From: Candidatus Collierbacteria bacterium CG_4_9_14_3_um_filter_43_16
GTDB taxonomy: Bacteria; Patescibacteriota; Microgenomatia; UBA1400; MFAQ01
Length of the DNA: 27,832 bases
Assembly (NCBI GenBank): GCA_002789895.1
Contig: PFUC01000004.1
Coordinates: forward strand, 1 to 27,832
Reading direction: 5' to 3'
The notes below the pieces were generated by a model. That model made no database searches and had not been told where the DNA came from. It saw nothing but the letters and a program-made list of their open reading frames with translations. This document shows, piece after piece, positions 3,446-11,861 of this stretch (the stretch's first letter is position 1; the number at the start of each line of letters is the position of its first letter). The position numbers and the translations under genes were made by a program.

Positions 3446-3745
3446 CCCTAGTACGAGAGGAATGGTCGCCTCAGGCGACAGGAAAGTCCGGACAGCTAAA
3501 AGGAAGGGTGGCTGGGGAAACCCAGTCCTTCCCGAGGTGACTCGGGAGGCGCGACAGGGCCACAGAGACGATTAAAGGTGAAACGCCCCGCCGCTCGGCG
3601 GGGATCCTCAAGGAGTAATCTTAGAGGAGTGGTAACCCGCCCCGCTGCAATCGACGAATTGGGATTAAGGTGCCTTTTCCGTCCCTAAAGTCTCGAGCAT
3701 AGATAGATATTCCTCCACGACAGAATCCGGCTTATTGTACTAGGG
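3446..3745 (+). ncRNA. rnpB: RNase P RNA, type A-like, reduced
   Basis: P4 signatures AGGAAAGTCCGG (3480-3491) and ACAGAATCCGGCTTAT. P1 is ccctagtac/gtactaggg and P3 is gtcgcc/ggcgac. ACAGAGA and TGAAA conserved regions are present. Confidence 0.97.
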
Positions 3746-3767
3746 AGCCCGCAAGGGCTCGCTTGTT
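3745..3767 (+). terminator. Hairpin gagccc-GCAA-gggctc after rnpB
   Basis: Perfect 6-bp stem with a GNRA loop between convergent rnpB and the AI-2E gene. The U-tract is weak. Confidence 0.55.
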
Positions 3768-8253: not shown

Positions 8254-9807
8254 TTAACTGGCTATTTCGCTGGCACGGGTTTCGCGAATACAATTGACCT
8301 TGACTGTTCCTGGGAAAGTCATAGTGTCTCTGATTTCATCACGAATGGCTTGAGCCAGTACCGTCAATTGATCATCTCCTGCCTTGCTTGGGTTAACAAT
8401 GACCCTGATTTCTCTCCCGGCGGAAATAGCGTAGGCATCATCAACTTCAGGATGTTTCCTGGCAATTTCTTCGAGATGACGAATACGTTTGCCATATTCT
8501 TCGGTGTTTTCGTGGCGGGCACCGGGTCTGGAACCGGAAATAGCGTCGGCAATATAGACAATAACGGATTCGTTGGAAGTAAATTCTTCATCTTCGTGAT
8601 GCTGGGCCACACAATCGATAACGGTTTGAGGAATATTAAATTTCTTTAAAAATTGAACTCCGAGCTCGACATGATTACCCTCGCCTTCGATTATTTTGCC
8701 GATATCATGAAGGAGGCAGCCCATACGGACAGTGTCGACATTGGCACCAATTTCGTTCGCCATCTTAATACCTATTCTGGTTTCTTCCAAAGTGTGACTG
8801 ATCATATTTTGCCCATATGAGGTGCGGAATTTAAAGCGGCCCAGCATACCAATGATCTCGCGGTTCATGTTGTATACCCCGACAGCATGACAAAGCTTCT
8901 GGCCCTCAAGGAACATAATTTGCTCGACATCGCGTTTGGATCTCTCGAAGTACTCTTCAATACGGGCAGGGTGAATGCGGCCGTCTTTAATTAAATGAAT
9001 TAAAGTGAGACGAGCAATCTCCCGGCGAACAGGGTCGAAACTGCTTAGTTTAACTTCGTCTGGGGAATCATCCATGGAAACGTCACAGCCGGAGACTTTT
9101 TCAAAAATGCGAATATTCCGACCATCTTTGCCGATAATCCTACCTTTAGTTTCCTCATCCGGAATCGGAACAGTAGAGATGGTGTACTCGGCCACATAGT
9201 CTGTAGCCCCCGCCTTCATGGCATCCACCAAAATTTCTCTGGCTAGATCCTCACACTCTATCTTGGATTTTTCTTCGGCTTCTTTAATGGCTCTGGCTGC
9301 CTCTGCGGCGGAACGCTTTTCGACCTGAGCAATGAGCTCTTTTTTGGCTTGTTCGGTGGTTAATGAGGCAATCTTCTCCAGTTTTTCGACCATTGAATCG
9401 GCTTGTGAAGAGATTTTGGCTTTGAGTTCTTCAATTTGTGTGGTTTGGAGATCGAGATTCGCTTTCTCCTTTTTGAGTTGCTCTTCAATCGTCGAGTTAC
9501 TTTGCTGTTTTTGGGCTAGGTTTTTGGAGCGAACTTCGATTTCTTCCAGCTGAATTCGGGCATCTTTGATGGCCTGATCCTTAATCTTGAAGGCTTCGTC
9601 TTTGGCCGAGATAATGATTTCTCTGGCCTGAGACTGTGCTGTGGCCTGTGCGGAGGCAATGAGAGCGGCGGTATCTGGGGCAACTTTGGGGAGTTCCTGG
9701 TTATTAGTTTTTGATGGCTCAACAGGAGAAGATGGGACGGCTTTGGACTTGATTGAAGAAATAGAGCCTTTGAAAATATTGGACTTGAAAATGGATAGTA
9801 TAGACAT
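8254..9807 (-). CDS. rny: Ribonuclease Y
   Basis: Coiled coil, KH domain (KGRIIGKDGRNIR) and HD domain (LLHDIGK, ADAISGSRPGAR). Confidence 0.97.
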   Translation of the reverse strand: MSILSIFKSNIFKGSISSIKSKAVPSSPVEPSKTNNQELPKVAPDTAALIASAQATAQSQAREIIISAKDEAFKIKDQAIKDARIQLEEIEVRSKNLAQKQQSNSTIEEQLKKEKANLDLQTTQIEELKAKISSQADSMVEKLEKIASLTTEQAKKELIAQVEKRSAAEAARAIKEAEEKSKIECEDLAREILVDAMKAGATDYVAEYTISTVPIPDEETKGRIIGKDGRNIRIFEKVSGCDVSMDDSPDEVKLSSFDPVRREIARLTLIHLIKDGRIHPARIEEYFERSKRDVEQIMFLEGQKLCHAVGVYNMNREIIGMLGRFKFRTSYGQNMISHTLEETRIGIKMANEIGANVDTVRMGCLLHDIGKIIEGEGNHVELGVQFLKKFNIPQTVIDCVAQHHEDEEFTSNESVIVYIADAISGSRPGARHENTEEYGKRIRHLEEIARKHPEVDDAYAISAGREIRVIVNPSKAGDDQLTVLAQAIRDEIRDTMTFPGTVKVNCIRETRASEIAS

Positions 9808-9826
9808 GGTTAAAAAAATTATTAAC

Positions 9827-9963
9827 CTAATCTATGAGAAGTCAGCAAACACGCAAAATCAGTCGACTAGCGACCAGCCTGCCGGGTGGCGGGCTTTAGA
9901 GGGACTTTTTTATTTTGATTGAGATCGGACATTGCGTAATTTTGAATGACTAACATGATTAGT
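9827..9963 (-). ncRNA. Candidate 6S-like long-hairpin RNA or structured rny leader
   Basis: Nested helices ctaatc/gattag, atg/cat, agtca/tgact, caaa/tttg and acgcaa/ttgcgt, then an internal bubble and a terminal agcccgcc/ggcaggct stem. The 5' end coincides with the predicted TSS of a consensus promoter. Confidence 0.5.
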
Positions 9964-9969
9964 ATCTGT

Positions 9970-9998
9970 ATTTTAGTCTTCCAAATAGCCCCCGTCAA
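9970..9998 (-). promoter_or_regulatory. sigma70 promoter TTGACG-17-TAAAAT
   Basis: -35 at 9998..9993, -10 at 9975..9970 (overlaps the recX stop). Predicted TSS about 9963. Confidence 0.75.
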
Positions 9999-10452
9999 AT
10001 GCACTTTTGACGGCACGGTTGGAATAGCCTCGTTGGTAGAGCTTGGAGATTAGTTTCCGGCGGTCAAGATGGGGAAATTTTTGAAGATACTGTCTGATGG
10101 AGGCGATTTCAGCTTCCAGTGGCGCGCTGGTGGCGAGAGCCTCTGCAACCGCTTCCTGAGATAATCCTAAGTATTTGAGCTTGAGGGAAATAATCCTAGA
10201 ACCATAATGTTTGGACAACTGCCGTCTAACAAAGGCTTCGGAGAGGTATTGGTCGTTTAGGTAACCACTTTTGGCTAAATCCTCGAGTATAGAGTCGATA
10301 ATGGGACCGGGGTTCGTAAATTTTTCTTTTTCGGCCCGCCGAAACAGTTTTTCGCGCAACTGGACCCGAAAATACGGTCTCGCAGTAAGAATCCTACCAG
10401 CATATTTGACGAGGGTTTGCCGTGAATTATTTTTCTGGCTGGATGCCGGCAT
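9973..10452 (-). CDS. recX: Recombination regulator RecX
   Basis: Directly downstream of recA. Motifs GYLND..LSEAFVR, G...I..KL...G and the terminal L..RGY. Confidence 0.85.
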
Positions 10453-11488
10453 TGACCTTTTCCATAACTTGTTGCTTAATTTTCTCGATTACCTGGGGAC
10501 GCTCAGCCAGGGCAGTCTTCGCTGACTCCCGTCCTTGGGCAAGAGTTTCGCCATCGTACTTTATGAACGAACCAGCTTTTTCGAGCACGTTGTAAGCAAT
10601 GGCAGTGTCGATAAGGTCCCCTAGCTTACTGATACCGCCAACGTTGAGAACGTCGAATTCGGCAGTCCTAAAAGGCGAAGCGACTTTATTCTTCACTACT
10701 TTAGCACGGTGGCGGGAACCAATAATTTCGTCTCCCTCCTGAATATTACCGATTTTGCGCATGTCGATACGAATCGAAGCATAGAATTTGAGGGCTTTAC
10801 CACCGGTAGTAACTTCCGGATTACCAAACATGACACCTATTTTTTCGCGGAGCTGATTGGTAAAAATAACGATGCATTTGCTCTTGGAAATGGCACCGGT
10901 AATCTTTCTGAGGGCTTGGCTCATGAGTCTGGCCTGTAAACCCATGGAAGAATCCCCCATTTCACCCTCGATCTCAGACTTGGGAACTAAGGCGGCGACA
11001 GAATCAATGACTACGACATCCACACCGCCGGAACGGATAAGAGTTTCGGCAATCTCCAAGGCTTGCTCACCGTTGTCCGGCTGTGACAATAGAAGGCTGT
11101 CCAAATCAACTCCTATAGATTTGGCCCGACTAGGATCGACTGCATGCTCGGCGTCAAGAAAAGCGGCAATACCGCCCGCTTTTTGAGCTTCGGCGATGAC
11201 ATGAAGAGCTAAGGTGGTCTTACCTGAAGCTTCAGGACCATAAATCTCAATGATTCTGCCTTTGGGGAAACCGCCTACGCCTAAGGCTAAGTCTAAACTA
11301 ATAGAGCCTGAAGAGATAACAGGAATCTTTTCATCGACACGGTCGGAACCCATGTGCATAATGGCTCCTTCACCATACTGTTTGGTGATTTGTTGCATGG
11401 CAATTTTGACAGCAGTAAGGCGAGCGTTGTTATCTGTCGGCTTAGCGACTGACTTTCCTTCTTTAACTTTTTTGGATTTCTTTGGCAT
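10427..11488 (-). CDS. recA: Recombinase A
   Basis: [37 protein letters not shown] and [10 protein letters not shown]. Confidence 0.99.
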
Positions 11489-11790: not shown

Positions 11791-11861
11791 CGGGGTGTAG
11801 TATAACGGTAGTATTCTACTATGGGGTAGTAGAGACCGGAGTTCAATTCTCCGCACCCCGA
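11791..11861 (+). tRNA. tRNA-Pro (GGG)
   Basis: Acceptor CGGGGTG/CACCCCG, anticodon arm CTACT-ATGGGGT-AGTAG, T arm CGGAG-TTCAATT-CTCCG, discriminator A. CCA is not encoded. TGtTAAAAT promoter at 11773-11781. Confidence 0.97.

Follow-up and report, generated by a model that had tools for sequence, protein, structure and literature searches.

RNase Y initiates most of the mRNA decay in the bacteria that possess it, and its level must be tightly set. To our knowledge, control of this level is known only for Bacillus subtilis. Several other systems are relevant as points of comparison. In leader-peptide regions such as mgtL-mgtA (17 codons), pyrBI, ermCL and trpL the translation of a short leader ORF competes with RNA structure, and the peptides are too short to exit the ribosome before they are released. 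In the fold-back of hok-type mRNAs and at the MS2 replicase start, long-range 5'-3' pairing silences an internal start codon until the helix opens. 6S RNA is a discrete, stable rod of 150-200 nt in which a large central bubble, unpaired on both strands, lies between closing and terminal stems; it binds RNA polymerase holoenzyme and serves as template for product RNAs. The autoregulatory leaders of RNase genes (rny, rne, pnp, rnc) are long structured 5' UTRs that are cleaved or bound by the RNase they encode, with an effect on the half-life of the mRNA. For the CPR bacteria (Patescibacteria), which are hard to grow, we know of almost no described regulatory RNAs. In B. subtilis, RNase Y cleaves its own 160-nt rny leader, and RNase J1 subsequently degrades the RNA as far as the ribosome at the initiation site (Korobeinikova et al. 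2023, PMC10303841).

Here we analysed the region upstream of rny in a stretch of 27,832 nt, in the following called the window, which belongs to an assembly of 0.89 Mb that is 94% complete. In the window recA, recX and rny all lie on the minus strand. The spacer between recX and rny comprises 165 nt (9808-9972) and is present as a single copy in the genome. It contains a probable, uncatalogued cis-regulatory leader of rny, in which a short upstream ORF (uORF) is held within a 5'-terminal rod. As in the leaders of other RNase genes, a long structured 5' UTR with its own predicted promoter is located directly 5' of rny. The features of the locus, in the order in which they are read on the minus strand, are the following:

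10427-11488, minus strand: recA
9973-10452, minus strand: recX, the gene upstream of rny and host of the promoter
9993-9998, minus strand: -35 box TTGACG, within the final recX codons
9970-9975, minus strand: -10 box TAAAAT, its first three bases being the recX stop codon
9963-9966, minus strand: predicted transcription start, placed from the position of the -10 box, 0-3 nt 5' of P1
9954-9962, minus strand: P1 5' strand CUAAUCAUG, partner 9836-9827
9947-9951, minus strand: P2 5' strand AGUCA, partner 9844-9840
9932-9944, minus strand: P3 5' strand CAAA..UUACGCAA, partner 9856-9846
9867-9932, minus strand: uORF MSDLNQNKKVPLKPATRQAGR, 21 codons plus TAG
9877-9894, minus strand: GC-rich REP-like palindrome, an insert within the uORF
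9860-9876, minus strand: P4 apical hairpin, which holds the uORF stop codon
9846-9856, minus strand: P3 3' strand UUGCGUGUUUG
9840-9844, minus strand: P2 3' strand UGACU
9827-9836, minus strand: P1 3' strand CAUAGAUUAG
9808-9827, minus strand: P5 hairpin GGUUAA...UUAACC, ending at the rny AUG
8254-9807, minus strand: rny, RNase Y with the domains RNase_Y_N, KH and HD

Further upstream, the reading frames of recA and recX share 26 nt where the former stops and the latter starts (10427-10452, minus strand), which suggests translational coupling of these two genes.

The initial annotation of this DNA had proposed a minus-strand promoter TTGACG-17-TAAAAT. This promoter is present, with TTGACG at 9998-9993 and TAAAAT at 9975-9970, 10 of 12 matches and a 17-nt spacer. 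Among the aligned relatives that retain this stretch TTGAC is invariant. The conservation of the -10 box extends beyond the recX stop codon (AAT A), a pattern that speaks for a promoter and against coding constraint as its cause. Elements of the form TTGACG-17-TAnAAT recur across the order, and the overlap of promoter and coding sequence upstream of rny is kept in at least 13 families (L070-L109). The rny promoter lies within the final 8-9 codons of the gene preceding rny (...I/F-D-E/G...), such that the TAA stop constitutes the first half of the -10 box. A second, weak promoter-like site in the 3' arm and P5 (9845-9818, 9 of 12 matches) was dropped, since it lacks conservation in relatives. 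Between the hairpin and rny, neither a terminator nor a second conserved promoter was found.

The minimum free energy (MFE) fold of 9808-9975 on the minus strand has -40.7 kcal/mol and a z-score of -4.15, with 1 of 200 shuffles being equally good. It reproduces the nested hairpin of 136 nt (9962-9827) described before, together with all five helices that had been named for it. In spacer numbering, where position i corresponds to window position 9973-i, the helices are P1 (11-19/137-146), P2 (22-26/129-133), P3 (29-41/117-127), P4 (97-113) and P5 (146-165). The final pair of P3 uses the A of the uORF AUG, and the uORF stop is located in the loop of P4 here and at the 3' base of P4 in relatives. 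P5 is kept in the genera g1, g2, g8 and g9 with compensating changes in length and bases, and g7 has an analogous hairpin. The T-rich tract that had been noted ahead of rny (9820-9812) does exist, being the loop and the 3' half of P5, but the relatives have no T run there. They read UCAUUAAUUUAAACC at this place, and the tract is therefore not a terminator tail.

The plus strand folds less well (z -2.67). Assignment to the minus strand, which had initially been based mainly on the promoter, is now supported by the promoter, by the uORF and by the aligned pairs, among which 81 G-U cells compared to 35 A-C cells favour the strand of rny. Transcription from the plus strand was dropped as a candidate, given the weaker fold, the A-C mismatches in place of G-U pairs and the absence of any plus-strand gene near the leader.

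Within the genus the recX-rny spacer shows 72-92% identity, and it is partly conserved in a second genus. Owing to misaligned arms, RNAalifold retrieved no helix but P3 from the raw MAFFT alignment. This approach was replaced by a hand-set structure in combination with a covariance-model alignment. The covariance models (R1 and R2) match only g1, g2, g8 and g9, where exactly one copy per genome was obtained, always at the recX-rny site; other genera and families were examined via the synteny of rny. For 28 sequences from these four genera, 83% of the cells pair and 20 of the 31 pairs have changed on both sides, counts that are indicative only, since the alignment was fitted to the structure model and the sequences are related. 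None of 500 shuffles reached this level of covariation, and slid controls gave 7-11 pairs. In P1, 6 of the 9 pairs have changed on both sides across genera (A-U / G-C / C-G). All pairs of P2 and all six pairs of P4 covary, and the P3 core UACGCA/UUGCG is near-invariant in the four genera. For every genus of the family the MFE fold joins the 5' end of the RNA to a stretch ahead of rny, with the ORF filling the space between the two arms. At one locus (L051 in G025) the rny match begins only at query residue 82-83 while the leader and the ATGTC start are intact; the N-terminal part may contain a frameshift or have been misassembled.

The hairpin had originally been put forward either as a 6S-like RNA or as a cis element controlling RNase Y. 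With 6S RNA (RF00013) the leader has in common the rod shape, the unpaired middle and the dependence on a promoter. We found no canonical 6S RNA elsewhere in the genome, such that the corresponding niche seems empty. A stand-alone 6S-like RNA would in this case be processed from the rny transcript, mimic an open promoter and sequester RNA polymerase. However, a search of the whole genome with RF00013 gave zero matches at E up to 10. An Rfam search of 9700-10100 at E up to 10 likewise returned nothing relevant (snoR41 at E 2.4 is a chance match). At the gathering score the window contained only an RNase P RNA and a tRNA. The former, of class A (3448-3747, plus strand), scored 103 bits and thus barely above the gathering score; both it and the tRNA (11791-11861, plus strand) are situated among minus-strand genes. 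Moreover, nearly all of the unpaired sequence of the leader belongs to the 5' side, the 3' side contributing just 2-5 nt, and this 5' segment coincides with a conserved ORF that has a coding signature. The rod is also shorter, since it measures only about 115-120 nt when the repeat insert described below is absent. Finally, it has no defined 3' end: a terminator or processing signal is missing, and the rod stops 20 nt before the rny AUG, where a further hairpin follows. The 6S interpretation was therefore given up, and we regard it as extremely unlikely. Neither did our literature search find any paper that places ssrS next to rny, a neighbourhood that had been suggested for some lineages. The second proposal, a cis element that controls RNase Y, fits the conserved promoter, the invariable contiguity with rny and the covariation.

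The segment that had been described as an A-rich bubble is indeed there, but it is one-sided and represents a conserved ORF that starts at an invariant ATG (9932-9930). Its substitutions are of the coding type, which makes it a predicted translated frame. The AUG is invariant in 28 of 28 aligned sequences, and the frame is open in every one of them. As for known leader peptides, both position and frame of the short ORF are conserved. Without the insert the uORF has 17 codons and ends at a UGA at the 3' base of P4. A uORF of 12-22 codons (mode 17) was found in 43 of the 43 family genomes with data, always between the two arms, and the five genera missed by the covariance model have it as well. 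The 17-codon form was seen in all 10 genomes of g2, in 4 of g1, in 3 of g9 and in 2 of g7. In the 10 g2 genomes the uORF measures 54 nt throughout, while the flanks differ by 3-6 nt. In g9, UAA takes the place of the UGA stop without a shift of alignment column, and one genome (G012) carries an in-frame deletion of 3 nt. The mean pairwise difference at codon positions 1, 2 and 3 is 0.29, 0.41 and 0.57, respectively. Of the single-base differences 31-34% are synonymous in the frame of the uORF compared to 14-20% in the other two frames. An in-frame AUG within P1 (9956-9954), which would add 8 codons in most genomes of the genus, was rejected as start, because G001 and all other genera lack it.

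The uORF has no Shine-Dalgarno sequence, and neither has rny in this genome, in which only about 12% of 510 long ORFs carry such a sequence (as a 4-mer). In several other families of the same order rny is preceded by AGGAG. Throughout the genome the regions upstream of ORFs are A/T-rich, and many contain TATAAT-like boxes 7-12 nt 5' of the ATG. The closeness of these boxes to the ATG suggests that leaderless or near-leaderless mRNAs are frequent.

The GC-rich stretch at 9894-9877 had been taken for the terminal stem of the hairpin. It turned out to be a variable insert instead, and the conserved apical hairpin is P4 (9876-9860). The insert occurs in 8 of the 12 genomes of the genus, and it is lacking in the other 4 and in every other genus. 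Palindromes resembling CCTGCCTGCCGGCAGGCAGG are found at about 11 loci in this genome, and like REP elements they are dispersed, near-identical and variably present at orthologous sites. The insert of about 20 nt shifts the frame, such that the uORF terminates within the P4 loop, at UAG or UAA, after 20-21 codons. Three species (leaders L035, L005 and L043) have a second, identical GC palindrome with a U-rich tail between P1 and P5, directly 5' of the rny start. GC palindromes have entered the rny leader twice, once within the uORF and once between P1 and P5. The second of them looks like a terminator, yet it is tolerated ahead of rny.

An excess of synonymous changes would also be found if the ORF were a micro-protein gene. 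In this case the peptide would have a function of its own, e.g. as a partner of RNase Y, it would be co-transcribed with rny, and the rod would only tune its translation. The peptides of g1 and g2 are similar to each other (M-S/F-x-L/I-S-Q/N...S-L-x-G), but part of this similarity is encoded by the P4 helix. Across genera or families the peptides have no common motif; regulatory codons and arrest motifs common to them were likewise not found when the peptides were compared. The length of the ORF varies from 7 to 31 codons, and the repeat insert rewrites the C-terminal half in the 8 genomes that carry it. A peptide of 17 residues would furthermore stay in the ribosomal tunnel until its release. 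Taken together, this makes a micro-protein with its own function improbable.

We also inspected the regions upstream of rny in 40 genomes of the order that belong to 15 further families; both an rny start and a promoter call were obtained for 26 of these genomes. The promoters are mostly TTGACG-17-TAAAAT, located 150-205 nt upstream in the last codons of the preceding gene. In all 26 scored leaders there is an apical uORF enclosed by 5-31 long-range pairs. Their length ranges from 7 to 31 codons; most have 10-21, and 17 is frequent. An ORF of at least 10 codons is present in 22 of 23 lineages compared to 41-56% of dinucleotide shuffles; supposing that the lineages are independent, the sum of log10 p for the retention of the ORF is -7.4. 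Among 40 genomes from the rest of the phylum, we obtained a single clear case with 17 codons (G197), and G180 is possibly a second. The leader design is thus mainly a trait of this order, and the procedure does not find it everywhere. A scan of genome contigs for the pattern TTACGCAATG, a gap and TTTGCG was less specific: the matches listed were in unrelated taxa and presumably arose by chance, the pattern being too loose.

These data also bear on a passive role of the element, in which the rod would serve as a 5' stabiliser or as an RNase III processing site and the ORF would be a by-product of an A-rich loop that is poor in stops. The helix begins directly at the predicted 5' end, the genome encodes RNase III as well as RNase J, and a contained ORF is obtained in 12-56% of shuffles. 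A by-product would, however, hardly be kept in nearly all lineages with an invariant AUG. It would equally not be expected that one stop is swapped for another at the same position, that the length of the ORF is fixed while its flanks vary, or that third-position and synonymous changes are in excess. We consider a purely passive element to be quite improbable.

In the interpretation that we prefer, the hairpin forms the 5' leader of the mRNA for RNase Y, with a rod that encloses a translated uORF and with the fate of the mRNA being tied to ribosomes and RNase Y. We assign this reading a probability of roughly 60%. Transcription would start from the promoter at the end of recX. The 5'-most nucleotides of the transcript would then base-pair with sequence located 20-30 nt 5' of the rny start codon, forming the rod P1-P3. 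The rod would cap the 5' end and enclose the uORF, in its basic form of 17 codons, as well as P4 with the stop codon. A ribosome could load onto the uORF only with the rod open, while the closed rod would silence the uORF. The 5' strands of P2 and P3 fall inside the footprint of an initiating ribosome. Since, in addition, the A of the AUG is part of P3, rod closure and initiation on the uORF are predicted to be mutually exclusive. The apical segment, which is G-poor, AU-rich, single-stranded in the predicted fold and adjacent to a hairpin, would either be covered by ribosomes or be open to cleavage by RNase Y with subsequent entry of RNase J; loading of Rho would be an alternative. In this way the fate of the rny mRNA may be coupled to the availability of ribosomes and to RNase Y itself, which would result in a negative feedback of the kind seen for the B. 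subtilis rny leader. The sequence comparison shows the promoter, the covarying structure, the conserved uORF with its coding signature and the distribution across the order; starting from it, we infer the transcription and translation of the leader as well as every regulatory step, be it self-cleavage by RNase Y, Rho action or attenuation.

Regarding the output of such a leader, RNase J, RNase III and a match to Rho are encoded in the genome, the latter with 505.6 bits slightly below the family cut-off of 509.45. Stability-based and Rho-based outputs are thus all possible. A simple switch in which uORF translation unmasks the ribosome binding site of rny is not supported by the modelled accessibility of the rny start. 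When the uORF was forced to be single-stranded in the model, this accessibility went from 0.59 (free) to 0.56, i.e. there was no consistent change. P5 is predicted to form in both states, with the uORF either free or occupied.

Alternatively, the leader could act by transcription attenuation. Without a ribosome on the uORF, P4 together with a U tract, or Rho loaded on the C-rich, G-poor apical segment, would halt transcription before rny, and translation would relieve this block in a manner similar to pyrBI or mgtL-mgtA. In 44 of 60 leaders the stop codon of the uORF is part of a hairpin or sits at its base, and a U3-U6 tract follows 3' of P4 in most genera of the family. C outnumbers G in the uORF region of 63 of the 68 leaders, and a Rho homologue is present in the genome. 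However, the hairpins at the uORF stop are weak, with a mean of -6.3 kcal/mol, and at least 5 U within the 8 nt after the hairpin were counted in only 13 of 60 leaders, which makes an intrinsic attenuator doubtful. A terminator scan of the region remained at chance level (2 found, 1.1 expected), and a rut site would be expected to be longer than the roughly 50 nt of the apical segment. Attenuation therefore appears unlikely to us. We favour the mRNA-stability feedback, in which ribosomes that translate the uORF would compete with RNase Y for the apical segment.

This proposed feedback resembles the B. subtilis rny 5' UTR in that both have a leader of about 160 nt and an AU-rich single strand beside a structure, with ribosome occupancy being tied to the fate of the mRNA (PMC10303841). 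No sequence or structural homology between the two is established, and in the discussion of the B. subtilis leader neither a uORF nor a 5'-3' rod is mentioned (PMC10303841). B. subtilis rny has a very strong Shine-Dalgarno sequence, in contrast to the rny gene studied here (PMC10303841). Also, cleavage has been shown for the B. subtilis leader, while for the leader here it is a predicted step (PMC10303841).

Compared to mgtL, pyrBI, ermCL and trpL, the rny leader has no conserved regulatory codons, no clear terminator and no alternative structure that sequesters a ribosome binding site. Different from these systems, its uORF is enclosed by a helix that uses the extreme 5' end of the RNA. With respect to hok and MS2, the enclosed ORF differs in that it encodes a 17-codon hydrophilic peptide and no toxin, and in that the regulated gene is located downstream of the helix.

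The leader with its mini-gene probably tunes the amount of RNase Y. Extending this to the whole order, one can tentatively imagine an ancient ribosome-sensing switch, in which the helix at the 5' end locks a uORF of about 17 codons and the competition of ribosomes with RNase Y (or Rho) for one single-stranded segment sets RNase Y synthesis. Each mRNA molecule would then exist in one of two states, silent under the cap or open for translation; we see this as possible, with the odds somewhat against it. Our literature search found no paper on an rny leader in CPR bacteria.

The element of about 150 nt, consisting of promoter, rod and 17-codon uORF, provides a specific hypothesis that lends itself to testing in a heterologous host. 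It is a candidate for a new RNA family that spans at least 16 families of one order. For the prediction of non-coding RNAs it advises caution, since in genomes poor in Shine-Dalgarno sequences an apparent internal loop may be a translated mini-ORF. If the interpretation as a switch is true, the rny leader would establish a new class of control by leader peptides and would be the first mechanism of RNA regulation to be described in CPR bacteria.
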